In this document: positions 1 through 35,162 of the stretch, one piece after another
How positions within the stretch are numbered: position 1 is the stretch's first letter
Layout: the number at the start of each line of letters is the position of its first letter
Origin: an uncultured bacterium
GTDB lineage: Bacteria > Omnitrophota > Omnitrophia > Omnitrophales > Aquincolibacteriaceae
Assembly (NCBI GenBank): GCA_964389345.1
Contig: CAYMER010000070.1
Coordinates: forward strand, 1-35,162
DNA length: 35,162 nucleotides
Direction of reading: 5' to 3'
Made by a program: the position numbers and the translations under genes
Notes under the pieces: generated by a model
What the model was told of the DNA's origin: nothing
Databases searched by the model: none
Seen by the model: only the letters and a program-made list of their open reading frames with translations

Positions 1-3000
1 TCGCTCCGGCTTCAGACTTCGCAGGGACGGATTCCGGACGGACCGTGCTTTCGGGCTTAAGCAAAGAAGCTTGGACCGCATAACTTTCCGGCGTTACTTT
101 GGGATCGTGAACAACATTTCCTTCTGTCAGGGCGCTTCCGACCATTTCCCGCGCCCAGGCCAGGACCCCCGTCAGGAACTGGTTATCCTCCGGCGGTCTC
201 ACAGCTCTGGGAAGATCGTTCGGTTTCCACTCGGCCTTCCTGAAATCTGTGATCGTGCCTTTTTCATCAATTGCAAAAAAGAATTTCCCGAACTTGGGAC
301 CGACTTTGAAAACGATATCCTCACCCTCATGCATCTTGACCCAAAGTAAAAGATCAAAGGTCACCTGCTTAACAAAATCGCTTTGGGTCGCGTCATAGGT
401 GAAATGCACGAGGTGTTGCCCGAACGGCACATTCATCTCCGCGAGGATCCCCGATTGAGCCTCGTCTTCAACAACCCCGATGTTCCCGACCACATGGATC
501 TGCCGAGTTTCCGAACGGGCGTTTTGGATTCCATCGAGAAATTTGCGGGCGCGGAAAAAACTTTGACTTCCCTTGCGGCCGCCGGAAACAAGGTCCCCGG
601 CAAGAAAAACTTTCGCCATCTTCCGGACGCCGGCATCCGGAGAAGAAACCTCAACGGCGCGCAGTGCGTCCCGCACAGCTTCCGGTTCCATGGTTTTCAC
701 CCGAAGTGCCGAACGGGCAGGAGTTGTTTTTTTCTTAAGCAACAAAAGCTGGACGTGGTCGCCGTCACCGCCGAACGGAATACGCAGGGTCCAGCCCTGA
801 AGCAGGTCGTCGCGTTCTCCGTAATCGATCCCCGCCAAAAGATCCTGCACCCGATACGCGGTCCCCGGTTCAATGATCTGCTCAAGACCGGCCGAGACCT
901 GGGTCGATACTTTTCCGTCGCCCGCCGCGACTTCACGGCTGGCGGCATCGAGCTGGATCGCAGCCACAACGACATCTCCTGAAGCATTTTTTGAGGCCAA
1001 AACAAGCGAGCTTTTATGCGAAGAATCCAACACGTAAAAATGATGTTTCCCGGCCCGGGGCGCATCTTCTCCCAAAGCAGTTTGGATATTCGCCAGGGCG
1101 TGACTAAGCCTTGAATGGAACGAAGGATCCCAGGCGGAAACCCGCGGCGTATTCAACAGATCGGGTCTGAAAAGACCGATGAGCGTCATCGTAGGTCTTA
1201 TTTTATCCCCAAAAAAATCAGCGGCTTCCTTGGGATCATCGCTTGCCAGGATCTCCAGCTGCTCGAAAAGATGGTTCGATGTAGGCGCCCCTTCCGGAGA
1301 CTCATAGCCGGTTCTTGCCTGGCGGATCAAATGCCTGAGAGAAGACGCGTCCTGCTGTTCTTGGAGACGGACGGGTTCCAGGAGGCTGTTCGAAAGCAAC
1401 GAATACGGAACCGGCTGCAGCTCAAGGATCTCAAGACCCAGAGGCATGGGAACGCCGATCCCCAGCACGGTCACGGGATTTTCTTTTGCATGGATCCTGT
1501 GATTTTTTCCGAGTTTGGGTTCCCTCACCTGGACGAACCGCACATCGGGCGCTCCCTCCACCAGCAGATTAAAAGCGGCGGCATCGATAAGGACCTGGGT
1601 GCGCGCCTTGTAACCTGTAAAACTCTGTTTTTCTTCACGTTGAACGGGGGCCCCAAGATTGAGATCCACCAGCACGGGCTTTCTGCCCTTGGCTGCGAAG
1701 ATAAAAGACTGGATCTTTTGATCATGGGTCCTGAGAGAATGCGCATTCGAATGTCCCTCAAGATAGCGAGAAATGTATTCGGCCCACGGTTGATAAGTTT
1801 CCCCGGTGCCCTGCGTTAATTCGTCTCTCAAGGCTTTTGCCTGCTCCGGATCCGCTTTCACATAGCGCTCGAACCAATTCCCTGCCATGCGCACCAAAAG
1901 CATTTCTGTAAGGTCCATGGCCTGTAAACTGAGAACTATTTTTTGTTTTTCATCGGAGTCGGCCGTTTCCCTAGCCATTTGTTCGATCCTCTTTCTTAAA
2001 GGATCCACTCCCGGAGACATGCCCTGGAGACTCGCCAGGATATATTTAAAAACGTCTCCCTGATTAACATGATGTTTCAAACTGTCCAGGGCATCCATCC
2101 CTCGCGTCGCCTCTGGGTTTTTCGGATCAGACCGCTGCCAGGTTTTGATCTCACGGAAAGATTTGAACATGCCGAAAAGCCCCATCCCTCTTGCGTAATG
2201 CGTCCTTCCGTCCCGCATCCCCTGCCAAACGAAATCAGCGGCTTTCATGGGCGCGGCATAATCCGAAGACTGGAAATGGAGCTGGCGGAACAACGCTTCG
2301 CTCTTTTCCTCATCCTCAAGTGTCTGTTCGAGCAAATAAGCGTGGGCCATGGCCTGGCCGGTCACCATGTCCACTTTCCAGGAAGCCGCTACGGATTGAT
2401 ACATGCGTTCGCGCCGTGTTTTGGGATCAGAACGCAGCGTCTTGATCTTTTGCAGGGCTTCCACAAGACTTACCACGGACGGACGCCGCCCGCCGCCCTC
2501 CTGAGTGCTCCGCTCATTGTCATCGTACCAGACAGGAATTCCGTTCAAAACCTCCCACTCACCGCGCTTGACACGCTCCCGCATGATGTCATGAGTAATG
2601 ACCGTTTTGTTCGGCTCGCCTTTGTCGTTCAAAACCCGGATGATTTCACCGGTCCGGATATCGCGAATGACCCAGACCTCGGGATTCGCCCCGCCGAAAA
2701 CGCCCATGACCTCGCCGCCGTTCGTTTCATTCTTTTCCATGCTGGTGGCCGAAGCTTCCAGGTCCTCATCGGAAAGCATCATGCCTCCCTCCGTTCCGCG
2801 GAAAATGATCTGGGCTTCATAATACGTGTAATCTTCCAGCGTCCCGATGCGATCCTCCAAGCCGAGCAGTTCGGTCAGGAAGCGGATATAAAGGAAACGT
2901 TCATGGGCGTCTTTCAGGTTAAAAGTCCGGCCGCCGATCAGCAGCCGGCCGATCGTTCTCCTGAGTTCCTCGATCGAGCGCTGATCCTTTAACCGGCTGC

Positions 3001-6000
3001 GGAGCACCTCGAATTCATTTTTGTAGCGTTCCTCGTTCTTGTCGATGCCGTCCTTGTAAGCTTTCCAGAATCCGAAGAGCGAAATGAAAGGCCTCCAGGG
3101 CTCATCCTTATCATCATAATTCTTTTTCTCCCAGGGAACATGGACCCCCGCCTCGGCGCCTGCTTTCGTCACGACCTCTTTCAATTCCTGTTCATATTTG
3201 TCCGGTCCTTTATAATCGACCTGGCGACGGACATTGGCAACGACCGGATCGTTAAGAAGCAGATCGCGGACCTGAGAAAATTCCGAATCGAGCCTGGTCC
3301 AATCTTCCGGCCGGTTCTCCTGGGCCGCTTTTTTGACAAGAGCCTGCATTTCTCCCAGACGAGCCAACAGCTGGTCCATGCTCATGTTGTTTTGTTGTAT
3401 ATAATCCTTGAACGTGTTCCCGAGCCAGTCGCGTCTTCCCGTAAAACCGTATTTTTCCCGGAGCCAGGTCAAAAGGGTTGCCGCATCCGCGGCGCTCACC
3501 CATTCGTTCTCGGATTTAAAAATCTCGCGAAGGTCCGGATGTTGGTCCAGGATCCCAAAGAATTCGCGGTCATTGGCTTCCGCCGGAAGTCCGTACTCGG
3601 GAGCAGGCGTCGCAAGCGTTTTCTTGTGATGCTCGATGACCGCTCTCCGGTCAGGAGACTGCCAGCGCGGGAGGAAAACACCGTTCGTGCTGCGGATCTG
3701 CTGCTTGGCATCATAAAAACCGCGGACCTTGTGCCAGGCGGTTCGAAAAATGTTATTGAGGAGCGCGGGAAGATGTTCCACAAGCCCTACGCCCGAGATC
3801 AGATGAAAGATCTCCGCCGTAAAATCCGCAATGCTGATCTTACCGTCATGAACGATCGTTGAGCGAAGCCACTCGGGAAACCCGAAAAAACCGTAATAAC
3901 CTTCCCAGGCCTCAAAAAGACCGGGGCGGAAGACCGTATGATTGAGCGTGGTCCGTTTCACGCGCTTGAGATGTTTGAGAGGAAGGCTGACAAAAACTTC
4001 GTGGTCGAGAAGGATAACATTATCCGGATCCGGGTTGCCTTCAAGATGGCGGATCAGAAGTTCGCTCGCCTCGCTAAAGGCGGCCATATGGATCTCGCGC
4101 ATCCCCGTATCGTCATACACTTCATCAAAGAAAGGTTTTTCTCTTCCCTCGGCGTCAACGGTGTACCCGTCCAAATAATGTTGCGGCGACCGGTGTTTCT
4201 CATAATAGGTCTTGTAGGCCCGGAAATAGACCGTGGCCGGGGCGTTGTTGATAACCGTTTGGACCCGCAATTTGACCGGGGTCAATTCCATGGCTTTTTT
4301 GACGATCTCGCCGAAAAGGATCCTCTGTCCCTTCGCATCCAGTCCCTTGACCGGCTTGTTCTTGATGAAATTCCAGAGAGGGTGGATGCCGGTCACATTC
4401 ATCCCAATCGCGGCCCAGGCTTCGAACAGATCGGGCAAGAGAGCCCCGAGACCGCCTGTTAATGTTGTTTGCGAAATTTTGCCGGCCGTGTAAGCATCGT
4501 ACAATTCCTCTATTTTTTTCAAAACGTGCATGGGATAACCGGCCTCGAATTGCCGGCTGTAAACATGCCTCTTCGCCAGCTGAGGAGTTTTCGCTTCAGC
4601 CCAGGTCGTCCCTTCTTCCGCCCGCATCTCGGACCTCGCCGGAAGCCAGGCATCTTTTTCAATGGCAACAGCGTCGCTCGCTCGCAGTTCGGAGCGCCTT
4701 CGCAAAAGACTCATTTCCCCGGCAAGAACCGCATGCGCACTGCTAAACTTCGCGACAAGGTCACCCACGGAATCCAAAGCCCGCGGATGATTTCTGCGGA
4801 GAATGTCCTCAATGATGGCCTTCATAAGGTACAAGCGGCTATTGGGCGTGAAATGGAATACCGGCGGCGCCCCTTCTTCTTGCGTGACGAGCCCTTTCAA
4901 TTTTAGCGCCTTCACGAACATCGCGAAAAGCATGTCCTGCGGGTAGTTCGGCGGTTTCATTTTTTGATAATCAAGCAGGGCGACAAATTCATTCGGCATC
5001 AGGACAAGATTTCCACCGTGGTAATCCCACCGGCGCACCCCTTCCCCTTCCAGAACGGAGGCCACTTTTGACACGCGAACCATGACGTTAAGGACGTGAA
5101 GGAGATATTCTTTTTCGGGCAAAGACTGTATCTCTTTAAGGTGGTGCTCCCAATCCAGTCCTTCGATATAGGGATAGACGATCGTGAGGGCCTCAGAACC
5201 AGCCCAAAGAGGCATGGCCTCTCCTGTGCTGGTTTTAAAGGCTCGTACCGCTTTAAAAAGAAGCGGGTTATAGACGCGGGCCTGGACGCCGTGCCTCGCG
5301 AGGATCTCATTGGCCAGGTTCCTCGGCTCCGTCCGGTTCCCGAGCGCGGACATCAGCCTTTCGATCGCTTCCTCCTCCTGCTCCTGCTTGTCTTCATCAT
5401 AGAACCTCTTGATGACATAGATCCTGCCGGAAGGATCCCCCTTGATCGTCGCGCGGTAAAGCTTTGAGGGACTGGACGACGACTTCGAGATCTCTTCAAA
5501 AAGAACGAAGGTTACTTCGTCCTCGAAAGAGCTATGGGGCGCCTGCGGCCGCATCACAAGCATTTCGTCCATTCTCCGGTCATGCTTCTGGTCCCGGATC
5601 CTCCAGGCCGCGTGAAGATGATCGAGCACTTCGGCGCTTTGAAGCATCCACCTGTGGAACTGGCCGGGTTGCAGCTTGAAATAGATCTTGGCCGCGGTTC
5701 CCTGAATATTTTCGAGCCGGACATTCTGTCCGACATAGAATTCCTGGCCTTTTCCGCGGCCCTCCTCCGCAAAAGGGTCCCAGAGCCAGAAATCGCCGAA
5801 GGCCTCCTCGATCGTGGCGGACTTGAGGTGGGGCTGCCTTTTTAAATAAGCGTTCTGTATCTCGGGAAAGTCGTTCAGGTCCACATCCACGACCCCTTCC
5901 CGTAATTCTTCCGAATGGTTATCAATCACCAGGAAGCGATTGGTAGAACTGGTCTCCGGAGTACCGAGGAATGCTTCCACTCCCGGCCTCGAACGAACCA

Positions 6001-9000
6001 CCAGCTCTTTTTCCTTCTCAAAAACAGGACGCTTCCCCGTGGAAAGCATTTTGGAATTCACAACCTGTTCCCATTCCCCCATATCCCGCCGGATTTTCGA
6101 AGGCGCTAACACCTGAGAATCCCCGACTGTCGGACGGACAGGGGCAAGGCTTGCTCGCAGTTCGGAGCGGGATCTGACCTCCGGGACCTCCGAACGGGAA
6201 ACAAAAGAACGGACCGCGGAGTTGATGCGTTGAAGGGATTCCTCGCGCGTTGTGAGGATCTTCCTGAGTTCGCCCGCATGAACCAAGCGATCGATCCATA
6301 ACAAAAAGGCCGCGGGAACGCTCAGCACGACCGCCACTTCTCCAAATGCCCGGGTCAAAAGAACCGTCAGAGCGATGACGCCGCTCCAGTAGATCCCGTT
6401 GACTTTCAGGGAACGCCAGAGAGACGGTCTTAAACCATTCGCAAAACGCGCAAGCAGGGACAATATTCCATCCATATCCCGCTGAACCAAAAACCCGTCT
6501 AGTTCTTTACGATACTCACGAGCCTTGAAAAACCGCCCCCAAAGCTCGAGTGCGCCGTCATGGTCCAGCATCTCGAACCGGACCTCCCGGTAAAAATCCT
6601 TCCGGTCCAACTCACCTTCCGCTTGTCCCCGCATCTCGGAACGATTGACGCGGTCGATGACGACGATGCGATAGAAGCGTTTTGCAGGAAGCGCGCCTCC
6701 CGTGAAACTGCCGTCGTCGATCCAGCTCGCGACCGTACCGTCCGCCACGATCCCACGCTGCACAAGCTGCCAAGAACCTGTTTTGAGATCATCCCGGTAT
6801 TCGATCTGATAAACAAAATTGGTTTGGGTCTGGAAGGTGACCTTGAAGTTCCCGTTCGTTTCTTTAAGCCCCTGGATCACCGGCGCTTCGACCGACACGA
6901 GCGCCTGCCGCCGCGTGGCATTTGGATCGATGCTTAGCGTCGTTGTTGCCGTAATTGTCGCAGTCGTATTGGTTTCGGCAAGCGCACCCGTCCCTTTTTT
7001 TGCGATCATCGCCCACCCGCCGTTATAACCAACGCTTCTGATTTGGGTGCTGCCTAAAGCTTCAATGGCCTGATAAGCTTGTTCCACACGAGGATCAGGC
7101 CACGCTGAACCACCAGGGCCTTGGATAAATCCTCCCTCTTCGGCAATCGCCATAATGACAATTTTTCCGTTAGGAATACTATTCAAATAGCTTACAAAGG
7201 TCGGAAAATAAACGTGCGGATGGCCCCATACGTCCCCTTCCATAAAATAAGTATCAAAATGTTGAAAATCTTCCATACGATTTCCAGTATAAGAATCCAG
7301 CACCGCAACATTGATCCCGCGGCCGCCTTTATCTCCGCCGGCGCGCGAAAAAACGGTTTTACCATTTAAGGTAAAGACCGCGGGGTTGCCTGAAGTCGCG
7401 GTCATCACAGGATTCGTCACCAGAGGAATGCCGTTTTGACCGTCCAAAGCAAACCTCTGCTGAAATGCCGGGACAACTAGCTTCGGTTGGCGCCCGATGT
7501 TAAACCATCCGAACCATTTTTCGTCGTTGTAGCCGTCCGGCTGACCATAATTCACTTCGGTCGAGTAGCCCTGACTTCCGGTGTAACCGCCTTTATACCA
7601 TTCATCCTGAAATTCAAAAGCAAGCGCACCGGATACGATCCCGCCCGTTCTTTCCGCGGCAAGATTGAATAATATTTCATCCCAAAGACCGATATTGAAA
7701 TCCCTCTGCATGGCCTGATCTTCGCTGCCGCCATACATCGATGTGTGTTTAAAGGAATCCGCGCCGAACTCGGTAACAAACATGGGCTTGTTCGAGATCC
7801 TCGCCCATTGGGAAAACGCATCCGTAAAACTTGCATTGCGGTAAAGTTGCAGCCCCCAAACATCGACGCTCGGGACCATATTACCGATAATCTGGTTTGA
7901 AAAATAAACCGTTCCGTCTGTTGGTTGCCATGGCGCAATATCGGGTTCCAAGTAATGATAAGTGCCCCAGGCGGATGTCGTTTCTGACATGGGGATATGC
8001 AGGTCTCCGTAAAAACTGACAACAGGGTGATTTGTATCGATCGATCTTACGATTTGGGCTGAGCGTTCCGTAAACTGAGCCGCAGCTTTTATATCGGGAA
8101 AAAACCCATAATAACGATTAATATCCCACTCATTTCCGATACCCCAGCCAAAGATCGCCGGGTGATTTTTGAAAGCGTTCACGACCACTGGGATATTGTT
8201 AGAATTGGCCGTATCGCCGTAATAAGGTGCGGTCGCCGGCAGAATTACTTTAATCCCGTACTTGTAAAACATATCAAGTACGGCCTTGGCTTCGGCATTC
8301 GTTCCCATGTCGTAATAAAGCCTTGCGACATTAACGCCATTGCTCGCCATCAGAGGAATATCATTGGTGTACCACTTAAAGAATTCTTGACGAAAAGCCG
8401 GCGCGTTAGCCGCAGGATCCGAATTTGTGGAGGCTGGGCTCCAATTCACACCTTTTATCGTGAACGCATAATTCGTCCCCAATGTTCCGTCTTGCTTGCG
8501 TTCTTTGACAAAGATCCGGCGATCGCCGGGCTGGGTATAAACTTTCGTCGGCTGGGTCGGAACGCCGAATGCGCCGGCATAAGTTTCTTGGGCCCATCCA
8601 AAAAACGCCATGACGCCCATGAGCACAAATTTCATCAGGCTTGTCCGCGCCTCGGAACGGACAGACCCTGGACGAGGAGCCGCGAAAGAAGCGTCGTTCG
8701 ATTGCAGAAAAGCATGGACCCTGGCCCGCTCCGCGCCGGTCATCTCCGGAGTCCCTTGAGCGACCCGGCTGGACGGGATCACTTGCTGGAATCTCAAGGC
8801 TTCCTTGAGTCCCGCGATCTCTTGAGTCCGGCCGGCGGTCAGTTCCGGAACGATACTGCGGATCCGCCTCTGGATCTCTTCAAGATGCTTTCCGCCGAGC
8901 CCTTCTTCGACAAGCTGTGCCGGCAAAGGGCTCACATTTCCGAACGAGGACACCGCGCCGCGCGCGCCCAGGATCAGCGCATCATCGATCGCAAATTCAT

Positions 9001-12000
9001 CGCCCGCATAAACAGTGAATCCATAATTGGAATATTCTTCCGTCAGGTGTTGCGGCCCTGAATTTTTAACGAAGGCGACCCGATCCGCGATCTCGGCGAG
9101 TTTCCGCGCAGGAATATTCTTTCCTTGGGAGAGCGCGGGATTGTTGTAAACGCCGACAGGCAAAGAAGTGGCCATTCTGCGGAAATGATCCGGGATCTGC
9201 CCGGGATCTGCCAAATAATAAAGAGGACAAACGACCAACGCATGAACACCCCGGAACGCCGAAACTTCCTGGATATTCTTCAAGGTCTGAGCTTCGGTGT
9301 TACCTGTCACGTTCGCGTGAACGATCATTTTCCCGAACGCTTCGGCAGCGGCTGCCGCAAAAAGTTCGATAGCCTGCAACCGCTGGTGATTCGTCAGTTT
9401 ATCGAACTCTCCGGTGCGACCCATGACAAAAATCGCGCGGGTCCCCTGGCTGATAAGATGAGCGACTAACTGCCTGATCCCGGTTCCATCGATCTTTCCG
9501 TCATGGGTGAGCGGCGTGATCACCGGAACGATGTTCGTCGCCGGGGTTACATCGCGCCAACTCCGCGACTCCTGCCCGGAGCGATTTTCGCTCCGTCGCG
9601 CCGTCTGAGGAACTTCGCGCCTCGCCTTCCTTTCCGGGCGGCGTTTCTCAGCGAAGATCTTTATTTCGTTTTCCCCGGACCCCGTCTCGGCCTGGATCGT
9701 AAAATGAATGTCCTCACCAAGATCGTGCATGGCTCCATAAAGAATCATGCTCTTCCTGTTCCAATCCTGCACTGTAAGCGGAGCATCGAAAGACTGCTCC
9801 TGGGCACCGGCTAGAAGAGTGATTCTGAAAAATCTTTCTTCGCCTGCGAGGCCCCTATAAACCAGGTCCCTGATACGCTCAAAAGCCGCGGAAAGGTTCC
9901 CTTCGGCCCTCACTTCAGAGCGGCTGGCGGCGACATTCAGCTCCACGCGCATTTTGCTGGGATCGATCCTTGTCGTGGGATTATCCAGGATCCCTTGCAT
10001 CAGTTCCTGGGCGCGCTCGGAAATGGCATCCTCCGTCACATGGTCCGCAGAAACGGTTTCCCCTGTCCTTAAAACCGTGAGGGCCTTCTCGAGATAGACA
10101 AAAGCAGACGGAACGGAAAGGTCGAAATTATTGTAGTTCTGAGCCGGATGGGTCACCCACCTCGGAAGTTCCTGACCTCTCATGGAAGTTAAAAATGCTT
10201 CGAGTTTTTCCGCCGTCAGGTCTCCTTTCCGGATAGCCTCAAGTTGTCTCAAGGCGGAACGGATCATCATCCCCGCCGGCACAAGATATTCCCTCCGGTC
10301 CCCGGGCGCTTTGGAAAGCTTGTAAGACTGCCGGGCCAGAGGGCTTTCGGAAGCGGCCGTAAATTCTCGGATCGCTTTGTCCATGAAACTACCGGCCTGC
10401 GCCGCCGCAGCCTCGGGCAAAGTCCTTGTTTCTTGTTCAGAGCGATTTTCGCTCCGGTGAGGCTCGTCTGCCTTCGGCAAGGCGGCAGCGCGGGCTTCGG
10501 GACGACCCTTTTCGACAAGGGGGGCCACGATCTGCGATTCCAAAACTGTATGGGTCCCGACGGCAGAAGAATCTTTTCCGTCTTTCCTCAAGAGATCTAA
10601 AGTATTGTTCAAGTCGGCGACCAAAAACCCAAGGCTTGTTTTTTCATCCAGAATTTTTTCATTCGCCAGAAAAACGCTTCCTTTGTTAGCCAGGGTCGCC
10701 GCCGTCCGGCCCGCTTCTTTTTCCAGGATCCTCGCCGTTTGTTCCGGCAAAGTCCCGGTTTGGCGCCCCTCAGCTGTAAAAACAAGAAGGGGCTCGAAAT
10801 CAAAAGAATAAACCTGCAACAACCAGCGCCGCGCGTTTGCAAGCGCTTCATCAACCTTTCCCTTTAGTTCGGATGAAAGGCCGGCGCCTGTTTCCTTGGA
10901 AACGTCACTAAAAAGTTCGGTGATTTTAACTTCAAGTTCCAGCCCTTCGGCCTCCAGATTCCTCCGGTGGTTCGCCTTCCCCGTTCCGCTTTGGGTCATC
11001 ACTCGCGGCAATGCGGCGTCGCTCATTTTAAGAATGGCTTCCTGGATCCCGGCGAGCCCTTTTTGAGGGTCGATGCCTAAAGGCGGTTCCGGCCCCCAAT
11101 GACGGCTGTCGACGAAACGGTCCGTTACATCCAGAAGCACGCGGAAGAGGAAGTATTCTGCTTCTTCCCGCGAGGACAGCGGGTGATTCTTCCCGAGCTT
11201 GTTCGTGATCTTCCGGAGTAAGGGGCCTGTTATGCCCGGATGACCCGCCACCATTTTCTGAATGTCCTTGAAAATATCGTTCTCTGCCAAAGCGATCAGA
11301 TTCGAACTCGCTTTCATAGCGTTCTGGAAAGTCTGGTAGGTCTGAAGGGACTCCTGGCCGGAAACCGTCATGTTTGAGGCGGTAAAAAAAGCCGGCCGTC
11401 CGGGCTTGTGCCAAAAGTCGAAGAGGATCCATCCGGCCCCTGCTACCGCCGCCACCCCGGCAAAAAGGGACAAGCCAACGAAAGCCCTCCGCCGGTTTTG
11501 TTGCCTTGCCTGTTCTTTCTGTAATTGTTCGCGGCGCGTGGCTGCTTGTTGCCTTACCGTTTCCGCTACTAATTCGCGTGCCGACGCCTCGGCTGCTTTC
11601 GCCTGCTCGGCTAGTTGTAATCGTTCTGCTTCTTTCGCTTCCGCAGTTCTCAATTTCCTTTGAGCATGCTCTTCCTCGCTCACGATCTTTGCCGGAAGGT
11701 CGCTCGGCACGGTCTCCCCTGTTTCCCGTTGAAGTTCTTGGAACAACTTTGTGATGACTGTTCTGTCAGGAAGGGTCAGCAGGACTTCGGGCTCCACGCG
11801 CGGGTCCGTGATACGAAGCAGGTCTCTTTGCCAGTACACCAGAACCGCTTGCGGATCTTCGGGATCTCCTTTGAAATGATTCGAAAAAAGAGGCCTGCCG
11901 TTCAACGTTGCTGTTTCGTCCGTGCCTACAGTTCCGGCCGGAAGCTGGAACTCATATTCGAGCGAGACATTGCCGCGCAGATATCCCGCGATAGTTTCCG

Positions 12001-24000: not shown

Positions 24001-27000
24001 GGTCGCGCAGGATATCGAACGCGATCTCAACGCGGGACCTGGGTTGGCGTGGAGCCGGCGCCTCTTTGTCGCGGGATCCGGCATCTCCTTGACCGCTCCC
24101 AAGCCCGACCTCATTCACGCGCACTGTTATGGAAGCGCTTCCGCTGATCTGAATAGAAACGGCGGCATTCGGACCTGACACAGCCACCCTGACCAGATCC
24201 CCTCTTACTTCGGAGCGAGAATCGACAACATCCTGGCGGGGCGCACGGTTTACAGCAGACGCGCGCGAGACATCAAAGGCATTGCGGACCACGTGGACCA
24301 GAACGGTGTTTGGAACCAGGAAGAATTCGGCAAGCCCGCGGTCGTTGATGGCATCGACGTCCTGCCCGGAACGGTTTTCGCTGCGGCGGGGAGTGAACAT
24401 GATGTTTTGGATGTTCCGGACAAGCTGGCTGTTGGTCATGGCTGCGATCCCGAGGACCGTGGAACCGGTCATTTGTTCCAAATTCCGCACTGCTTGCGCC
24501 GGCGTGGCGATGCGAGGCGTTTCGATATGAAGGGTTTTCCCCTGTGCACGCGTATGACCCAGCCCGTCCCGCGTCTGGATCCGCGCCCTGATCTGGAAAA
24601 GGATCCGGTCAACGGCGATCTCCAGACTGGCCAAAGCCCCTTCGACCACCGGTTCCCACGCGACCAGCTGGGCGTTGATCCGTTGGATGAACGCCGGCAC
24701 GAAGAAAAGAATGATCCCGGACCGTGTAAGGTCGGTCCCAAGTCCTTGAAGAGTTCTTAAAAGACCGCGGCGGAAATCATGTTCGTGGAAGGTGGATATC
24801 AGGAAGACGTCGTCGGGTCCCTCCGCGAGGTCGATTACCGGCGTCCCGATGCCCAGTTTGACCACCAGAAGCTTGGCGCTTTCGAGACTCGCCTGGGTGT
24901 TCGCTAGGCCCGAATCGCGCGCAAGTTCCTCGTTCAGAAGGAAGAAGAACGGATCAAAATCGACAAAAACATCAGGATTGTTCTCTGCCGGTCCTCCTTC
25001 CCACACTTGCAAAATCCCGCGGATGTGCCGGATAAACGACTGGAGGACGATCAGCCCGACCCGATCCCCTCCCGAACGCAAGAGTCCCTCGATCCGGTCA
25101 TTAAGGGCCTCGAGCTTTGCGCGAAGGGTCGCGGCATTCTCTTTTGTGATCTTTTCCCCGGATGCATGAAGAATATTCAGGATCTCTCTCGTGGCCGGAA
25201 CAAGGATCTGCTCCATTTCCCTCATTTCACTCCGGACCGGGGCGGCGGGAACTGCGCTGAGTTCGCGCGGACGGATCGGGAGCGGGGTTTTGAGGTTTTC
25301 GGCGAATTCCGTCTGCAGCATACGCTCAACGACCGGGACTGCGCGCAGAAGACCGGCCTGGATCGTTTCGAGCGGGATCTGACGGTCATAGATCCAATCA
25401 AAAACGGGCTGAAGCATTTTGGAAGAGCTCTCGGTCCGGGAGATCACTCTGCTGATCACTTCGTCCGAGATCTCTCCGTTTTTCAATGCTGAGAGAACCC
25501 GCGCCACCGCTGTTCTTTTCTGATCCGTGATCCTTTTCCTCATATTCCCGGCGGAGTAGAAGATCTCCCCGACGATTTCTTTCCCCAAGACCTCCCAAAG
25601 GACCAGCCGCTCATAGATCGTGGCATTGGTAAAAAGATACCGGCCCTTCGCCCTTCCTTCATAGGCGCCCCAAAAAGCATCCACAAGCGATTGGATCGTC
25701 TGACCTTCTTCAAGAGTTTCTGGAATCTGCGGCAAGGTGGCCCGTTGGATGCTGCTTCTCCATTGAGGGGCGACGTACATTTTATCAGGCGCCTTGGTTT
25801 GAAGTCCTTCGCGCTCAATAGTCTCGATCGCAGCCGCGGCCCGTTTCATGGTTTCCGGCCAAATCCGCCGCAAAGCCGCCCACGCGATCGCCCTCTCCCG
25901 GGCCTTATCCGCTTCTGTTTGCTGCTCTTGTTGAAGAGAAGCGGCATTCTGTTCTTCGTCGGCGAAACGGATCGGCATTCCCATTGCTTTGCTGGCGTTC
26001 AAAAAATATCTGCTGCCATTTTTTTCTCCGTCAAAACGGATCTCGATGAAAGGTTCTTTCCCATGGCCAAGGGATTCGACGACCCCGACTTTCCCGTTCC
26101 GCGTCACACGTACTCCGGGCTCGATCCCTTTGAGGTTCCGAGGCACTTCGTTCCCCACCCGGATCTCCGAACGAACGTTTGAACGTTGTAAACTCGTTAC
26201 ATAATTTTGATAAGTGGCGACAAAAGCCGCGGCTGCGGCAGCCGTGCCGGCGCCCGTCAAAAAGGAACGGGCAATGGCCTGAAAATCCGCGGCGTCGCGG
26301 ATTTTCAAGGAACGGAACCCCTCGGCCGTTCCTTTCGAGATCTTCGTGAGCATTACAATATTCTTGGCCGCGGCCTCGAGCGCGATCTGCTTCTGATGCG
26401 CTTCCTGGATGGTTTTACCGCCTGTGATCGCGCCGTGCTTGGCAAGGAGAAGCGTCGGGTGGCTTTTGGCAGCCTCTCCGACAGCCACGGCAAGAGGCGA
26501 AAGCCCGGCAGCATAGTAATCAATGGCGGCCACTTCTTTCCCGGGTTCCCCAAGGGATGCTATGAGGGCTTTCCTAAGTTCTGCGATCTGTTGATTGATG
26601 CCGCGCAAAACCGGAGACATGTCGATCATCTCCTTCATCTGCTGATCCAGAATTTCGTCGCGTTCCGCCTGTAGCGCGGCAATGCGGGTGGCGAGCGCCG
26701 TACAATAGATCGGATGCCCGTGTTCAAGCGCAAAAGCTTCGGGCCTTGCCCGGTAATAGGCCAAATGGAACATGGTTTCAACGCTGGGTCTTGCGGAATC
26801 ATTCTTCCCGGGAAAACCTTTGACCTGTTCGCCGGTCACGGCATCAACCACGACATAGTCCTCAGCCCCCATGATTTCTTTTGCTTTACCGCTCGCTTTA
26901 ATAATCATGAACCGCCGGTCGGCGGTCAGCGCGCTGATATTGCCGCCCGGCCCGTCCACCATCCTGCGCGCGGCCATATCCCGTCCCACTTCAAGCAGAT

Positions 27001-30000
27001 CTTTGCTACGATCATTGATCTGTCCGGTATATTTCAGAACCTCTTCGGCAGTCGCTTGCCTGCTCGGATAGGCCTTTGCCGTCTTGAGAGCTTCAAGATC
27101 ATGGCTCAATTCGGCTTGCCGCAACCGTTCGACGCCATCGAGCATCAGGACTTGGAAATCATCAAGCTCTCCGACCGTCCCGAGAGTTTCTTCGGCACCA
27201 AAAACTTCGACAAGGCTTCGCGTAGTCTTGCCCCTGAAACGAGCCTCGAGTTCGTTTGTGCCGATCGTGATCGTGCCTTCGAGTGTCAGGACCGTGGAAT
27301 GCTCTTTCAGCGCCGCAATGACTTCGTTTACCGCAGCGTTGCCTTGTGTTCTGACGACTGGAATATAACCTTTCTCGTTCAACACGGCGATCTGTTCAGG
27401 CACCAATCTGCGGAATGTCTTGCCTGCTTCCGCAAGCCGGGCCGCATTCGAATCCTTATACTGGAGCACCCACGAGCTCTTGTTTTTCCCCTCTCTAGGA
27501 TCGGTCTGGTAATGTCCAAGATGCATTCTGAAATTCACATCTGCGATCGATGCCGCATCCGTCTTGATAGAAGCTTGGACCATCTTGCGGTCCGCGGCAT
27601 CTATATAGAAGACCGTATCACCGTCGCGGTAGCTGACCTTCGGAATCTCAAGACCGTTCGCCTCATATTTTTCGATCAGGGCCAGCAGAAGTTTCTCGGT
27701 AAAAATCACTGCGGCGGCCGCCGGAGACATTTCCACGGCAGGCTCTTGGACTCTTTGACGGACCTCTGACCGATTGCCTGTTGCGGCGAACAAGGCGCTC
27801 CTTTCGCCCTCTTGTTTCAGAAGCCGGTTGTGCTGTCCCCAAATAGACCGCAAGGCTTTGAGCTCAAGTTGCCGCGGTCGCTCACGGCTTAACAATCCTG
27901 CTTTTCCGTCCGCGCGATGAAGGAGCTCCCCTACTTCCTCAAACGTTAAGAAGGAATCGGGGCGATAAGGGTTCCGATGCTGAAGGATGATCCGCTGATT
28001 TTCGGTCAGCGTTGTCATCTTGGGCAGGACTGCCGACTCAAAAATAGGGTCTTGTAAAAGCGCATAAACTCTTTTCTTAAAATCCAAAACATCCTGCCCG
28101 ATCCGGACTTTTCCCGTCCTTGCTTCTGAACGAGAACGGCGCGTCTGGGACGACGTCGCGGGGGTAATGACAACATTGGAGCCGTCAAAACTAAGGACGC
28201 CTGCTTTTTGAATGATGATGCGCGGACCGATCCACACGTCATCTCCTTCGGGCAATGGCTGATCCGGAACGATCGGCTCGTTTTTGGCTTCGATCTTCAA
28301 GGCAAAGACCTCGTCGCGCGAGAAGCGGAGCGCTTTCCCTCTGGCAAGAAATTCCAGCATACTGATCGCTTGCGTTCCAAGGTCTCCGGCGTTTTTTATT
28401 TCCGGAAAAACCTTTCCGTCCCGGACAACAACTTCTCCCAGTTCGATCCAGCGTTTCCCGGGGGGACTGGTGGGATCATAAAGATAGGCTGGCAAAAGGG
28501 TCTCTTCAACGCCCTGTTCTTTCGTGTATTGGGCGAAAGCCGCAGCCATCCGATCGACAACCTCAGGCAACGTTTGGATCCTTGCGGTGTACGGCCCTTC
28601 GACATTTTTGGGTAACGCCGCGAGTTTTGCGCGTCCCGGAGTTTCGCGGGCCATGGCCTCCTCCGCTCCGTCTTGCTCCGCAGTTCGATCCATATCCTCA
28701 AAAAGCGCCCGTACATTGAGAGGCCTCGCCTCCGAGCGCGCGGAACCATTGACAGGCACGCGGCGGGTCCCGGCATAGATGCGGATCTCGAGGCCGGCGT
28801 CGACCGGTGTCACCGTAGTCGTAAAATCCACGTTTTCACCAAGGACCGTCATCTCTCTCGCGAGCCTGCCCTGAATGATCTTCCAACTCGTCGCAGTGAC
28901 CGGGCCGTTAAAGACCCGGCGCTCTTGTTCATCTAGAAAAAGCACGATCCTCGTAAAAGAGTCTGTGCCGTTCGTTAAAGCCTGAATAGAATCAAAGACG
29001 GAAGCGAAACTCCCGGGATTCGCGGCAGCCTCCGTGGCCGGATCAGTCTCCGCGGGGAACCTTCGTGCCTCCGCAGGCGAATTCAGGAAGCTGCTTTTTC
29101 CGGTCCTCACCTCCGAACGGGTTCCAGCAAAAAAACGGGCGATCGCTTCGGGTGCCTGAGAAAAATCGGTGATCACAAAATAAGGTCTTTGCTCCGGAGG
29201 GAGCGCCGCGATAGCGTCCAGTTTTTTCGGATCATTCTCGCTAAAAAGGACCCCGACAACACCGGCCTCAAGCCCGTTCCGGACATCTCCGAGCGAATCC
29301 CCTTGCATCATGATCTGGCGCGGAGCAAGAGAATCCTGTTCTATAAGATGTTTCAATACAGAGGCTTTCGTCGGGAATGCCTCCGTTGCGCCGTACCGGT
29401 CCTCCGGCAGAAATAAGTCTTCGAACCCGAGTCTTGGGATCTCGGCTTTCACGCCGGCATCCGCATAACCGCTATTGACCACGAGCCGCACGCCGCGTTC
29501 TTTCAAAGCCCGGAAAAACCGCTCAGCCCCGGGGATCAAAACTCCTTCCTTTCCCAATGCCCGGATCCGTTCCAGCCTATATTGTTCCAGCTCTTGAAGC
29601 CATTCCCCGACATAGACCCGGACAGATTCTTCGACCGTGAGGGTTCTCCCTGCGGCATCTTTTTTGAGCGGCGCGCCTTGTGATAGCATCCACCTCGCAT
29701 GGTCGAAATCATTATTGGGACTTCCGAATTCATCGACATAAACCGCGACAGCCGGTTCGACCCCGGCTTTGGATTTTGCAGGATTTAAAAGGATCCGGTC
29801 GGCTAAGAATTTTTTCATGCGGTCCATCCATCCCTGTGCAGAAATAGAGAACGTGTCATCCATATCCGATGCCACGGTAGTGACTTCCAAGGACAACGGA
29901 GCGCCGGGTCGCGTCACCCGGAGCAGCCCCGGAACACCGGTCTCCTGAAAAAGATTCCTCATTGCCGCCGGAATAACGCTTTCTTTGATCTCAATCAGGC

Positions 30001-33000
30001 CGTCCTTCACTCCGTTTGCCTGAGCCACGTCATTGACCAAAGCGGCAAGCGCGGGATAATCACGTTCGAAAGCGGCAAGTAACGGTTCGAGAATTGTTTG
30101 TAACGCCTTGATCCGTTCATCGTCGAGCGGCTTTTCCGGCGAAACCATTTCCCGGATTTGCTGATCGGAAAGACCGAGGAGACCTTTTACGATAAGATTT
30201 ACAGCCCGCGCGGCCGCTCGATTGTTTCTAGCGACGATCATCTTGAGAGTTCCTGGATCCCGCATAAGCAGATACGACGTGTTCCATTTGTCAAGCGACT
30301 CGATCATGCGCCTGCTACGTAGGTCATGGGCCCGCCGGAGCGGCCTTTTCAGTTCCGATAGAGAGCGAAGCGATGATTCAAACTCTTCCCTGTTTTTCTT
30401 GAGACGCTTCACAACATCCCCCGCGTCCAGATGAGACCCTTTCCTTGCCGTCTTCTCCACCGTCTTCTCCAACGGACCGAAAGCCTTCAAGATGCGGAGC
30501 GCTTTCCGGATATTGCCTTTAAGGCTCGCAATTTTTCCTTCCCTCGCCTCCGAACGACCGATGGCCAAGCGGTTCAAGGCATCGGCGATGGCAAGGTGGT
30601 ATTCGTCATAAAATTTTCCGAGGAAATGTTTTGTTTTAGGCGGCGTTTCTTCTTCGTCCGCCGGCCCCATCTCGTTGCCATAGCCCATGTCGCGGAGCAC
30701 CTTTTCAACGGCCCTCTGAACGCTGCCGTGAAGCAAGGGAAAGACGCCGGCCGAATGAAACGTTTTGGCTAAGTCCGCGGGCGCCATCTCCGGCTCCGCG
30801 GAAAGTCTCTTGGAAAAATCGTCCGGATCGATCGTCCTCGTTTCCGCTCTTGGGGGAGATTGCCGGGCATTACTTTCAGAAGCGATCAAGGCTGTGGGCC
30901 CCGGGGCGACTGGCGCAAGAATAGCGCGGGGCTTTTTTACGTCTGTCGGCGCTTGCCTCTTGGCATCGAGGGGATCATATTCAACCAGCGTCACGTTGAG
31001 CTCGTGCCCTTCTGGAGAGGTGATCCTTAAAAGCCGGCTCAGATCGGACGACATGGATCTGATCTCCGCGGGATCGCGCGGCAGACGTTTCACCCAACGG
31101 ACATTATTACCAAAAAATTCCAGGATTTCCTGAGGATGAACCTCAAAACTGAGACTAATCGAAATGGCCGCTGAGGAATCTTTCCTTTTTAAAGTGATCC
31201 TGGGTTCTCCAAAAATTTTTACAAATTGAAGCATCCGGTACTGTTCGGGATCTTCAAAAAGATCCCCCGTCTTCGCAAGAAACTCCGTCTGGAGTCGTCC
31301 TGACCGAGAATCCGTAATCCGCCAGCCTAATTGCCAGAGAATTTTTCCGGAGGAGGCGACTGTAGAGAAAGAAGGGCGCATTTGCCGCTGAATCGTCGGC
31401 AAGCCGAAAACAGCTTTTCCGCCGTCAGGTTCCGTCCATAGAACGTAGCGGTTCTCATCTTCCGGATCGCGAGGGAAAAGCGTATTTTGCGGAGACTTCA
31501 AAAACCGGAAAAACTCGACAACACCCGGGAACTCCAGCGGATTCGCAACCAACAGAGCCGTTGCAGAGGTTTGCAGAGCGGTTTCTCCTGCATCTTCCGT
31601 TCCAGCCCTTATTTCCGATCTTGGAGGAGATTGCTTAACGCCGCTTTGCAGCGCGGCTGGCCCGTCCGGCTTTGTCGTGTCAATCGTGCGCAGCGCCCCC
31701 TCTGCCTTCGAACTGTCATCTTCTTGTGCGGGCGGCGCGCGCTTCGCCTTTGTTACCAGAAGCAGAAAGTAGAGGCCCCAGCCAAAGGCCATCCCACTGA
31801 AAAGACCGAGCGCTCTTGAAAGTAACGGAAAACCGGAAAGAACCGGGAAAACCGCGCGATAGAAAAAAATCAATGGAATCCCAAGAACAAAAGCTGCTAA
31901 AAAACCCAGAAACATCATGTTGAAAGAATCAAACCTGGTTTTTTTCTTCCCTTCTTCTGCTCCCGAACGGACCTCGGAACGTTTGTTTGTCCCAACGAAC
32001 TCGTTTTCAATGTTGTCGTCGGCAAGGATCTTACGAACGGCTTTGTTGGCGAGAGCGACGTCGCCGAGAGCTTTTTCAAGCTGGGCCTCATAACCCGGCC
32101 AAAGTTCATCAAATTGCCCCGGTCTTTCGTACGCGATCACCTGGCGACCCACTTCGCGCATTTCGGCGCGGCGAGAGGCGAGTAGCGCTTCGCCGTCGGG
32201 CAGAGTGCGGATGAAGGGGATGTCGCTTGAGGCTGAGGCACCGATGTTGCTAGCCGGTACGGCGGAAGGCGTACGGCGTCTTTGTTTTGACTTTCGCCGT
32301 ACTCCGTACGAACCGAGCAGCGATCGAATATAGTTTTTCTCATCTTCCGCCCTTATCTCACCAATATTGGGAGTAATGCCGATATAAGAACTCCCGGAGG
32401 CGGTGATCTTTTCCTTGAAACCCTCCGCGTGAAAGCCGCCGGTGATAAGAACGGCTTTTTTGTCTTTCCGTGCGCCAAGGATCTTCATGGCGTTTTGCAT
32501 CATCGCGTCTTCTCGCGTGATCGCGAGTTCGTAAAACCGGGTCGCAGCCCCAAACAAAGAAGTGATAGGCGCTAATTTGGAAGACCCGAGTTTTAGACCC
32601 GCCGCTATTTTCTCCGGTGTGATCTTTTGGGATTGAAGCTCCCGGAATTCTTTTCGGCTAAGCTCCAACTTGAAAAGTTTTTTAAGAAGGCGGTAGCGAC
32701 GAAGAATCTCGACGAGCTTCTGATCTTGCTCTGTTTTGACAAGCCGCACGGTCATTTTTTCGGTCAGGGCCCCGATCTCCTCCTGAAGCTGCTCACTTTG
32801 CAATTCGCTCAAGAGAATCAGTTGCTGAAGATAAAGCCGGAGGTTCGGGTAAGGGTCAAACGAGAAATCTTTGGGCAACTGATCGAGGAGGCGTTCGAAA
32901 ACAAAGCGGGTTTTATAGAGCGGCAGATCGCCAGCATTCTTGTGATCCAGAAGCTTTGTGATCTCCTGAAGAAGGGTTGCGGGAACCTTCCGCGCCCGGA

Positions 33001-33904: not shown

Positions 33905-34108
33905 GAAATGAACGTTTGTCCTTTCGGGATTTACCTAGGGAAGACTTAATCGAAAGATAACACATATTCTTTAAATTTCAAGGGGTTGAAAAAGGATTTA
34001 TCAAGGTATGTTTAAAGCCATTTGAAGAAACCCCCTATTATGATCGGTCGCTATAAATTGCTAGAAAATGAGCTGGAAAGCATTAAGAAGAAAACTTTCT
34101 CCAAGCTA

Positions 34109-34137
34109 TTGATTTTAAACAGGTTCTGAGCTATAAA
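34109..34137 (+). promoter_or_regulatory. Sigma-70-type promoter candidate for the plus-strand gene
   Basis: TTGATT (34109-34114), a 17-nt spacer, then TATAAA (34132-34137). The predicted transcription start is near 34144. The consensus is borrowed from model bacteria and the host is unknown. Confidence 0.3.
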
Positions 34138-34287
34138 TATAAGGGGTCGGAGCTTTTCCCGACTCACTCATCCTGAGCCTGCCGAAAGGCAGATCGAAGG
34201 ATCTCATTCGAGATTCTTCGGCCCATTGTTTTCTTGCGAAAGCAAAAAGCAGGCCTCAGAATGACGGAACTATCAAATCGAATTCTC

Positions 34288-34292
34288 GAGGA
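34288..34292 (+). promoter_or_regulatory. Shine-Dalgarno candidate for ATG 34297
   Basis: GAGGA lies 4 nt upstream of ATG 34297. Confidence 0.4.
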
Positions 34293-34296
34293 TGTT

Positions 34297-35130: not shown

Positions 35131-35162
35131 AGATCGGAAGAGCACACGTCTGAACTCCAGTC
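35131..35162. other. Illumina TruSeq adapter remnant (sequencing/assembly artefact)
   Basis: AGATCGGAAGAGCACACGTCTGAACTCCAGTC is the exact first 32 nt of the TruSeq read-through adapter. Confidence 0.93.

Follow-up and report, generated by a model that had tools for sequence, protein, structure and literature searches.

The 35,162-nucleotide (nt) contig CAYMER010000070.1 (GenBank assembly GCA_964389345.1; this whole stretch is the window below), from an uncultured bacterium of the Omnitrophota, carries on its minus strand a single open reading frame (ORF) of at least 11,301 codons. We found this giant ORF to be punctuated by 34 copies of the pentapeptide Arg-Ser-Glu-x-Arg (R-S-E-x-R), which separate recognizable protein domains and never interrupt one. 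On balance, we lean towards the view that the ORF encodes a bacterial polyprotein that is cut at R-S-E-x-R into many ordinary proteins. Under this proposal, the ORF would be translated as a single precursor, a cellular polyprotein; a dedicated endopeptidase would recognize the pentapeptide and free the modules as separate proteins; and the freed modules would fold, oligomerize, bind DNA, or leave via Sec or Tat signals of their own. Coordinates are collected in Table 1.

The giant ORF and its start

A preliminary description of the window, made from the sequence alone, had claimed an unbroken minus-strand frame from ATG 33904 to base 2, open at the edge. Stop codon counts bear this out: the minus-strand frame whose codon first bases equal 1 modulo 3 contains 25 stops, all at or above position 33937, and none from 33934 to base 2; the remaining five frames contain 146-472 stops each. 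The phase argument offered in that description holds as well, with minus-strand ORFs of at least 60 amino acids (aa) starting in phase 0 (n = 32) or phase 2 (n = 8) and none in phase 1. The ORF is real, very long, and of a kind that the ORF track could not display. Its first start codon after the last in-frame stop is ATG 33904, with GTG 33844 next. Because a sigma-70-like promoter, the ribosome-binding site GAAAGG and the ATG context are all conserved in an upstream alignment of 10 related loci, we take ATG 33904 as the real start of the giant gene, an assignment supported by this comparison. GC content at codon positions 1, 2 and 3 is approximately 0.60, 0.42 and 0.60 and remains steady across all 1,000-codon bins of the ORF, and Pfam and NCBIfam matches in this frame are distributed over aa 1343-9981.

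An ORF of this length could be an artefact, namely a chimeric assembly, a pseudogene-like fusion, or a chance-open untranslated region, and both the adapter sequence at 35131-35162 of the same contig and the fact that a short-read contig ends inside the ORF are consistent with such an origin. However, at the stop density of the two other minus-strand frames (3.6% per codon), the natural logarithm of the probability of finding no stop in the giant frame is about -415, and the coding signature is uniform. Homologous giant ORFs of like architecture occur on six independent genome contigs (L001-L006) and dozens of metagenome contigs, with 55-70% protein identity and conserved junction positions, promoter and start. 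Since these independent contigs hold homologous giant ORFs of identical architecture, mis-assembly of the locus is unlikely, and genes of this kind are present in published complete genomes from long reads. We give next to no weight to an artefact, an explanation that is already effectively refuted.

The preliminary description also saw at least 12 families along the frame and held the protein to be neither repeat-rich nor a megasynthase; our scans agree on each point. Nine Pfam families are solid (E <= 1.5e-6 and above gathering scores: Hydrolase/HAD, Aldolase_II, ATP-grasp_5, Succ_CoA_lig, His_Phos_1, HATPase_c, MraZ, DHDPS and ILEI) and six are weak, below gathering (GH2_C, PHP, Cofac_haem_bdg, Sigma70_r4, cREC_REC and Glyco_transf_5), numbers compatible with the earlier count and with many unrelated enzyme families strung together in one ORF. 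All 15 are present in single copy, and none dominates the chain. Tandem Repeats Finder returned two trivial arrays in the window (27 and 37 nt), and only two pairs of paralogous modules exist inside the giant ORF. Pfam and NCBIfam scans of aa 1-11,301 found no condensation, adenylation or thiolation domains of non-ribosomal peptide synthetases and no ketosynthase, acyltransferase or acyl carrier protein domains of polyketide synthases. What did not survive is the supposed near-unprecedented rarity of the gene: its nearest relatives are metagenome-assembled genomes (MAGs) of Candidatus Omnitrophota, where the literature reports such genes as common. The most informative features of the locus, the R-S-E-x-R punctuation and an N-terminal head domain, had been missed in that description, as had a plus-strand ORF at the right end.

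A pentapeptide at module boundaries

The 34 copies of R-S-E-x-R in the giant ORF compare with a mean of 0.31 and a maximum of 3 in 500 shuffles of the protein. Its x position is mainly Ala, Val, Ile, Met or Leu. At 16 related metagenomic loci, the motif has a density of 1.75 per 1,000 aa in giant-type ORFs compared with 0.06 in the remaining ORFs of 150 aa or more, a 28-fold difference. Conservation is limited to the five motif residues, with none beyond them at the protein or DNA level (15 nt) in a sequence logo, and all six Arg codons (over the two Arg positions), all six Ser codons and both Glu codons are in use. This pattern suggests that selection on the motif acts mainly at the protein level.

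The motifs divide the chain into 35 pieces of 20-1,373 aa (median 249). At least 34 modules come after the head, as large as ordinary free-standing proteins and closed by the motif; besides the enzymes they include membrane hairpins and many modules without an assignment. Every recognizable domain is confined to one piece, which it usually fills; no motif falls inside a Pfam or NCBIfam envelope, and full-length domains begin 6-40 residues past a junction. Several complete, unrelated proteins, including a DapA-like protein and an acyl-CoA synthetase, stand in the one frame, each within one module. The synthetase (module 13) matches NF045494 over profile positions 3-660 of 665 (E 9e-42), and the MraZ-like module 22 covers most of the MraZ profile (positions 4-130 of 163). 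A homolog search with module 10 (aa 2896-3178) found nothing, and AlphaFold2 (AF2) models of this module and its paralog, module 23, are too poor for a fold search, with a predicted local distance difference test score (pLDDT) of 54. A Kyte-Doolittle scan revealed about 8-10 hydrophobic helices in the chain in addition to the N-terminal signal peptide; the membrane topology of a single chain was considered as a test of cleavage and abandoned, as a crude hydropathy scan cannot fix helix parity. An NCBIfam match to HetF (caspase-like) in module 26 was likewise discarded as a protease lead, with an E of 7e-4 over a non-catalytic, low-complexity coiled-coil stretch.

One boundary appears to have been lost. 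Module 34 is fused to a 67-aa mini-module (503-700) via a decayed junction, RSALR (701-715, aa 11064-11068), that reads RSEVR or RSEIR in orthologs. In L001, L003 and L004, the same mini-module is flanked by intact motifs in differing contexts, which makes it an example of junction loss and module mobility.

Relatives carry lineage-specific motifs

A scan of one genome per species, using as query the 1,373-aa module 34 at the 3' end of the window portion of the gene, identified six loci with 55-70% identity over 1,300 aa; those records that name a phylum are Candidatus Omnitrophota MAGs. The window itself carries no marker genes. All six matches sit inside very long ORFs (1,258-5,469 aa, most of them cut by contig ends), and these ORFs contain 3-17 copies of R-S-E-x-R each. 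The motif is conserved at orthologous junctions, BLAST alignments between genomes start and stop at motifs, and the neighbours and order of the modules vary among genomes. Housekeeping genes neighbour the giant-type loci in relatives.

Head-bearing ORFs that lack R-S-E-x-R have recurrent RAE[LK]R, [AG]xSLG or GAR[ML]A instead, at 4-18 copies per ORF. Across the loci inspected, the head is usually followed closely by a first copy, and the spacing of the further copies resembles that of the modules in the window. A-x-S-L-G is common to three head-bearing ORFs on a single 2.17-Mb contig. When recurrent pentamers were surveyed in 46 head-bearing cluster representatives, each of at least 3,000 aa, R[SAT]ExR ranked among the top two in about 34, in lineage-specific forms (RSESR, RSELR, RTELR and KSEGR), and A-x-S-L-G was recurrent in about six. 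All motif types have a small residue at position 2 and a mostly hydrophobic one at position 4. In a neighbour-joining tree of head domains, motif type is uniform in shallow clades; the deep branching is unresolved. Judged from these sequences, uniformity within a genome combined with divergence between lineages is what would be expected of sites read by one co-evolving protein, and the RAExR, A-x-S-L-G and GAR[ML]A lineages would then hold co-evolved enzyme/site pairs.

Head and tail modules

The giant protein begins with a Sec-type signal peptide, which has a hydrophobic segment and is conserved in homologs, followed by the head domain. A profile search of 1.84 billion cluster representatives placed 9,146 proteins in the head family, with E <= 1e-30 for 5,421; among the 150 best of the 9,146, every match begins at or before residue 61, and the proteins are up to 7,498 aa long. 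A metagenome scan with the head, based on an alignment of 8 sequences, found 79 loci, and where 10 kb downstream are present the ORF mostly reaches the end of the locus. Three elements of the head are strongly conserved: Q[NDE]xH in 186 of 225 sequences, a Glu exactly 28 residues further on in all 140 matched sequences, and TGGFH in 209 of 225. Head-domain genes also cluster (L036, L051, L059, L060 and L069; also L001, L007-L016, L027 and L045), with some lineages having them as same-strand tandems and the clade of the window as divergently oriented head-head pairs.

This arrangement of an ExH-type motif, a Glu and a C-terminal GxxH-type motif (IQEAH...LEGA...TGGFH) recalls the paired His motifs and Glu that define the Tiki/TraB/ChaN/EreA superfamily. 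The GGFH region matched Pfam Cofac_haem_bdg (PF04187; ChaN, Tiki superfamily) in 9 of 19 head members, below gathering, with a best E of 6.7e-4 and 20.1 bits versus a cut-off of 27.7. A Foldseek search of the PDB with an AF2 model of the head (pLDDT 80) returned nothing significant (best E 0.37); EreC, at 0.89, and the BcR135-type entries 2rad and 3b55 are among the weak matches. The head profile had no match among PDB sequences, and querying these with the head sequence, module 34 or the tail profile gave no credible match either. The head differs from the superfamily in scores that lie below significance and in a helical insertion of about 300 residues. We regard it as a possible, weakly indicated and unproven distant relative of the ChaN/Tiki/erythromycin-esterase hydrolases. 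Even membership would not prove it to be a protease, because the superfamily includes proteases, esterases and haem binders. In the AF2 model, aa 534-560, just before the first junction, have a pLDDT below 50 and are modelled as disordered.

At the other end, complete giant relatives finish in a conserved tail module of about 240 aa that has no Pfam match and no PDB relative. Its last residues are typically small-small-Ala, often ARSA in the RSExR clade. Short complete forms of about 1,000 aa comprise a head joined to a tail, some with a junction motif in between; judging from these forms, the giants resemble head-tail proteins expanded by the insertion of motif-terminated modules. The ARSA ending resembles the first half of the junction motif. 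The idea that the terminal ...RSA mimics a cleaved junction was set aside, as the tails of other lineages also end in small-Ala, and we keep it as a hint only.

Export signals follow junctions

The Tat system exports folded proteins that carry its signal at the N-terminus. Because cleavage at the junctions would create new N-termini, exported modules should bear signals just past them. A hydrophobic signal or anchor stretch follows within about 45 residues at 5.6% of 770 junctions, as against 1.9% for positions drawn at random (p 1e-7). An example from the window is module 30, which opens with RSEAR/TSLMKFVLMGVMAFFGWAQETYA (the slash marks the junction) and whose own Sec-type signal peptide, MKFVLMGVMAFFGWAQETYA, begins 4 residues past the junction. 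Across 348,000 aa of giant-type ORFs, 9 of 16 Tat-like sites, belonging to 8 distinct junctions, are found no more than 30 aa past a junction, as in RSELR/AGQTRRTFLQAGALAALGLAAL, versus 1.3 expected (p 9e-7). These post-junction Tat signals are the strongest indirect argument for release of the modules.

The cargo points the same way. DapA-family enzymes act as oligomers. Some modules, such as the DNA-binding MraZ-like and sigma-region-4-like ones, the DapA-family enzyme and the secreted glycosidase-like protein, should need release, because they share one membrane-anchored chain with cytoplasmic enzymes.

Cleavage and other readings of the junction

The modules may instead remain joined in a membrane-anchored scaffold, a tethered "metabolon" or regulatory array, in which the motif would be a linker docking site, a modification site (e.g., for Ser phosphorylation) or a hinge. 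Uncleaved multi-enzyme fusions such as AROM, CAD and FAS are familiar in eukaryotes, and a binding motif with one receptor per genome would evolve in concert just as a protease site would. Passive linkers, however, would not hold four invariant residues over orthologs that are 55% identical, and Sec and Tat signals 3-10 residues past junctions fit poorly inside an uncleaved chain. MraZ- and sigma-like DNA-binding modules would be hard to use on a membrane giant, and the shuffling of modules between genomes suggests that they are functionally autonomous. We consider an uncleaved scaffold rather unlikely.

Several observations nevertheless weigh against a processed polyprotein, a reading in which cleavage is inferred from sequence. 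Pfam and NCBIfam scans found no recognizable protease domain in the 11,301 aa, a result that also favours the scaffold, and the link between the head and a hydrolase or protease superfamily is weak, being below the Pfam gathering score and without support from Foldseek or the PDB profile search. Because of its signal peptide, the head would be outside the cytoplasm, and most modules look cytoplasmic. The authors of two preprints treat Omnitrophota giants as single membrane-anchored proteins, again as the scaffold would have it (10.1101/2023.11.21.568195; 10.64898/2026.06.07.730766). The stretches found past junctions could be remnants of fused genes that no longer work as export signals. Nor is the junction motif universal, because about one-quarter of the surveyed giants have no recurrent pentapeptide and none was detected in the head-associated giant-ORF cluster of locus L087. 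There, a stand-alone 533-aa head protein (P0012) is flanked by a 15,048-aa ORF and, at its opposite side, by a 1,865-aa ORF (FBPase_3) that precedes a 5,059-aa ORF with malate synthase, isocitrate lyase, PGK and enolase domains; core metabolic enzymes do sit inside giant ORFs.

The last point against a purely proteolytic model is a synonymous codon bias that it does not predict. Among 155 R-S-E-x-R sites from the window and 12 loci, Arg1 is encoded by CGY in 127 (82%), versus 44% for other Arg-Ser pairs, and Ser2 by TCN in 146 (94%), versus 66% (p 8e-15). The control on other Arg-Ser pairs rules out codon-pair context as the source of the CGY/TCN bias. Such constraint on the Arg1 and Ser2 codons, with Glu3 and Arg5 unbiased, would suit a junction that acts in translation or on RNA or DNA, whether by 2A/StopGo-like skipping, as an mRNA processing site, or as microhomology for in-frame exchange of modules; cleavage "into smaller transcripts" is also left open by West-Roberts et al. 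(10.1101/2023.11.21.568195). Yet every synonymous codon class occurs at each motif position, and nucleotide conservation does not extend past its 15 nt. In A-x-S-L-G lineages the Ser bias runs in the opposite direction, with AGY in 72%, which fits lock-in of an ancestral codon class; the Ser bias may reflect such lock-in under purifying selection. Known 2A elements are much longer than five residues. Independent re-initiation is unlikely because Met is not enriched just after junctions (15% versus a background of 19%) and no consistent Shine-Dalgarno sequence is present. The DNA of the motif was itself considered as a Shine-Dalgarno sequence (GGAGG in TCG-GAG-GNN) and rejected, given that GAA and other Ser codons appear in half of the motifs and that Met is unenriched. 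The Arg1 bias keeps a translational or nucleic-acid-level mechanism alive, but at low probability; overall, we find this class of mechanism quite improbable.

If the chain is processed, the head domain and head2, a second head-domain paralog encoded next to the giant gene, are candidates for the protease, although we think it unlikely that either is. More broadly, and with slightly more doubt than confidence, we propose that in some Omnitrophota a substantial part of the proteome is made as polyproteins instead of from operons of separate genes, with a genome-specific pentapeptide (RSExR, RAExR, AxSLG or GARxA) replacing stops and starts, a dedicated enzyme, possibly the head, reading it, and Sec and Tat signals sorting the modules.

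Comparison with known systems

Omnitrophota giant genes rank among the largest genes known. Nielsen & Lui reported 3,650 proteins of at least 10,000 aa, with a maximum of 147,155 aa, and defined "multi-enzyme metabolic clusters" as a class in which the Pfams HATPase_c, HAD, starch synthase and response regulator/receiver recur (10.64898/2026.06.07.730766). Because giant genes are described as common in this phylum, we count the window ORF as a known kind of gene, and its sequence places it in the multi-enzyme class. It shares with those giants a single ORF of at least 10,000 aa, Omnitrophota relatives, many Pfams without a dominant one, the recurrent HATPase_c, HAD, starch synthase and receiver families, a signal peptide and scattered transmembrane helices. 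The head/junction/tail grammar and the lineage pentapeptides seen here, of which the window holds the first 11,301 aa, are not described in that paper; its text nowhere uses the terms motif, cleavage, linker, junction or polyprotein (10.64898/2026.06.07.730766), and no internal head/motif/tail grammar was found in the literature searched. West-Roberts et al. curated Omnitrophota giant genes of up to 85,804 aa and speculated on post-translational cleavage, stating that information on cleavage points was lacking (10.1101/2023.11.21.568195). In the window, a candidate cleavage motif is visible, whereas the peptidase types that they proposed are not.

The Archaeovorin- and Dockerin-type giants of Omnitrophota (10.1101/2023.11.21.568195; Candidatus Velamenicoccus archaeovorus) are likewise giant ORFs with transmembrane regions. 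Features reported for them are a SecA DEAD-like helicase, HEAT repeats, dockerins and C39/S8 peptidase domains, none of which was found by Pfam or NCBIfam in aa 1-11,301, the C-terminal part of our protein lying outside the window. Proteome data for Candidatus Velamenicoccus archaeovorus exist (PRIDE PXD025008, genome CP019384). The long tandem or near-identical arrays of repeat-rich giant adhesins do not occur in the window ORF.

Viral polyproteins (picorna-, poty- and flavivirus-like) also yield many proteins from one ORF, with a short, strict motif at each junction that varies by lineage as though co-evolving with its protease. Unlike these, the gene described here is on a cellular chromosome, is at least ten-fold longer, has metabolic and regulatory cargo, and has no named protease. 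Repeated recognition sequences and a dedicated protease are also found in the gingipains RgpA/Kgp, which are cut after Arg/Lys, and in multi-core precursors of ribosomally synthesized and post-translationally modified peptides (e.g., the cyanobactin PatE). Those precursors contain a handful of related domains or short peptides, whereas the window ORF contains dozens of unrelated full-size enzymes.

From the window and its relatives come putative cleavage points, a grammar shared by the whole family, and head2 as a candidate partner gene, so that the question of processing becomes experimentally testable. If processing occurs, it would be a new gene-expression strategy for bacteria, the equivalent, in cells and on a large scale, of the way viruses express polyproteins. 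Genomes of the phylum would need new gene counts, and their metabolic reconstructions and completeness estimates would have to be revised, because enzymes buried in giants (PGK, enolase, FBPase) would count as ordinary proteins, and annotators would gain a rule for splitting giant ORFs before structure prediction. If it does not, R-S-E-x-R is still an unusually strict, co-evolving linear motif in need of explanation.

Neighbouring gene, contig end and feature coordinates

Divergent from the giant gene is head2, which encodes a signal peptide and a head domain and is absent from the ORF track because it runs off the right window end. Its orthologs are complete (704-739 aa), occupy the same divergent position in relatives, and are 63-78% identical to the window copy, making head2 better conserved than the head of the giant itself (44-62%). 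Nucleotide conservation upstream of the giant gene was briefly considered as a large non-coding RNA; it is the head2 coding region instead and matches no Rfam family. Rfam detected no RNA family in the whole window, nor in the upstream region at a relaxed threshold. Homology to relatives stops exactly at 35130, and the remaining bases, AGATCGGAAGAGCACACGTCTGAACTCCAGTC, are Illumina TruSeq adapter read-through. This contig end is an assembly artefact, and the adapter bases append a spurious "...GRSEEHTSELQ" to the head2 translation.

Table 1. Features of the window and, where stated, of related loci. Junctions are given as the first base of the Arg1 codon; the slash marks the predicted signal peptide cleavage site.
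Feature	Coordinates	Strand	Description
Giant ORF	2..33904	-	ATG 33904; 11,301 codons, stop-free; left window edge cuts off tail module and stop
Sigma-70-like promoter of giant gene	33954..33981	-	TTGAAA, 16 nt, TG-extended TATCTT; from promoter scan; kept in 10 related loci
Ribosome-binding site	33920..33925	-	GAAAGG, 15 nt 5' of ATG 33904; coordinates read by hand
Sec-type signal peptide	33803..33904	-	aa 1-34, MNCLKRLQRILAGIIVVTFFVTNTLTPAPIAQA/AN; n/h/c regions and AQA site read by eye
Head domain	32225..33802	-	aa 35-560; IHIQEAH (His74), LEGA (Glu102), ITGGFH (His492); large helical insertion
Junctions 1-17 (15 nt each)	31981, 31621, 30556, 29119, 28738, 28132, 27772, 26173, 25234, 24385, 24217, 23428, 21160, 20884, 20509, 19531, 19084	-	R-S-E-x-R
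Junctions 18-34 (15 nt each)	18346, 18115, 17368, 16018, 15592, 14734, 12499, 12250, 10456, 9922, 9595, 8659, 6643, 6169, 4696, 4636, 517	-	R-S-E-x-R
Variant or degenerate junctions	32170, 30850, 15619, 715	-	RAEMR, RAETR, RSEAG, RSALR, respectively
Module 2	31607..31966	-	aa 647-766; membrane module, 2-3 hydrophobic helices
Module 4	29105..30541	-	aa 1122-1600; HAD-family hydrolase; PF00702, E 6e-8
Module 7	27758..28117	-	aa 1930-2049; weak sigma-70 region-4-like helix-turn-helix; PF04545, E 0.002, below gathering
Module 8	26159..27757	-	aa 2050-2582; class II aldolase/epimerase plus N-terminal half of unknown kind; PF00596, E 1e-34
Module 10	24371..25219	-	aa 2896-3178; paralog of module 23 at 54-55% identity
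Module 13	21146..23413	-	aa 3498-4253; full-length ADP-forming acyl-CoA synthetase (ATP-grasp_5 plus CoA-ligase flavodoxin domain)
Module 14	20870..21145	-	aa 4254-4345; small hydrophobic hairpin
Module 17	19070..19516	-	aa 4797-4945; weak receiver-domain-like; PF20274, E 0.014, below gathering
Module 18	18332..19069	-	aa 4946-5191; histidine phosphatase (branch 1); PF00300, E 2e-24
Module 21	16004..17353	-	aa 5518-5967; histidine-kinase-type ATPase; PF02518, E 2e-23
Module 22	15578..16003	-	aa 5968-6109; MraZ-like DNA-binding protein; PF02381, E 1.5e-6; homolog in L002 giant ORF
Module 23	14720..15577	-	aa 6110-6395; paralog of module 10
Module 24	12485..14719	-	aa 6396-7140; weak PHP-type phosphoesterase-like; PF02811, E 0.001; NF041577, E 3.5e-11
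Module 29	8645..9580	-	aa 8109-8420; full-length DapA/DHDPS-family aldolase; PF00701 positions 6-286 of 289, E 2e-28
Module 30	6629..8644	-	aa 8421-9092; weak glycoside-hydrolase-like TIM barrel plus ILEI domain
Module 32	4682..6154	-	aa 9251-9741; unassigned; L003 ortholog 68% identical, adjoining module 34 ortholog
Module 34	503..4621	-	aa 9762-11134; large, conserved; weak starch-synthase-like N-terminus; PF08323, E 0.0037
head2	34297..35130	+	first 278 codons of second head-domain paralog; MPTKKIF...IIQIQDVHAHAAAQQNI...ALEGA; divergent from giant gene
Divergent intergenic region	33905..34296	.	392 nt; conserved promoter blocks for both head genes; no Rfam match
Contig-end sequence	35131..35162	.	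32 bases; Illumina TruSeq adapter read-through
Tail modules of relatives	L002 14,0xx-14776; L003 15683-16408; L001 16394-17128		also in many P-proteins
L087 (ERZ27253378 k141_1092208)	1-5286, 6001-7602, 7670-13267, 13461-end		genes of the giant-ORF cluster

Minor sequence features accompany the two head genes. Two copies of the heptapeptide RRTPSAV lie in the head module, at aa 166-172 and 543-549 (about 33386-33409 and 32258-32278), in regions that the AF2 model leaves disordered, and one of the tandem arrays, a 7-nt repeat (CCGTACT x3.9) at 33435-33461, lies near these heptapeptides. In L007, the intergenic region between head2 and the giant ORF has two insertions (about 3040-3250 and 3420-3700) relative to nine other loci; they contain extended perfect inverted repeats, such as CCCAAGATCACCTCGTAGGTGCACCTACGAGGTGATCTTGGG, and resemble elements of the miniature inverted-repeat transposable element type.

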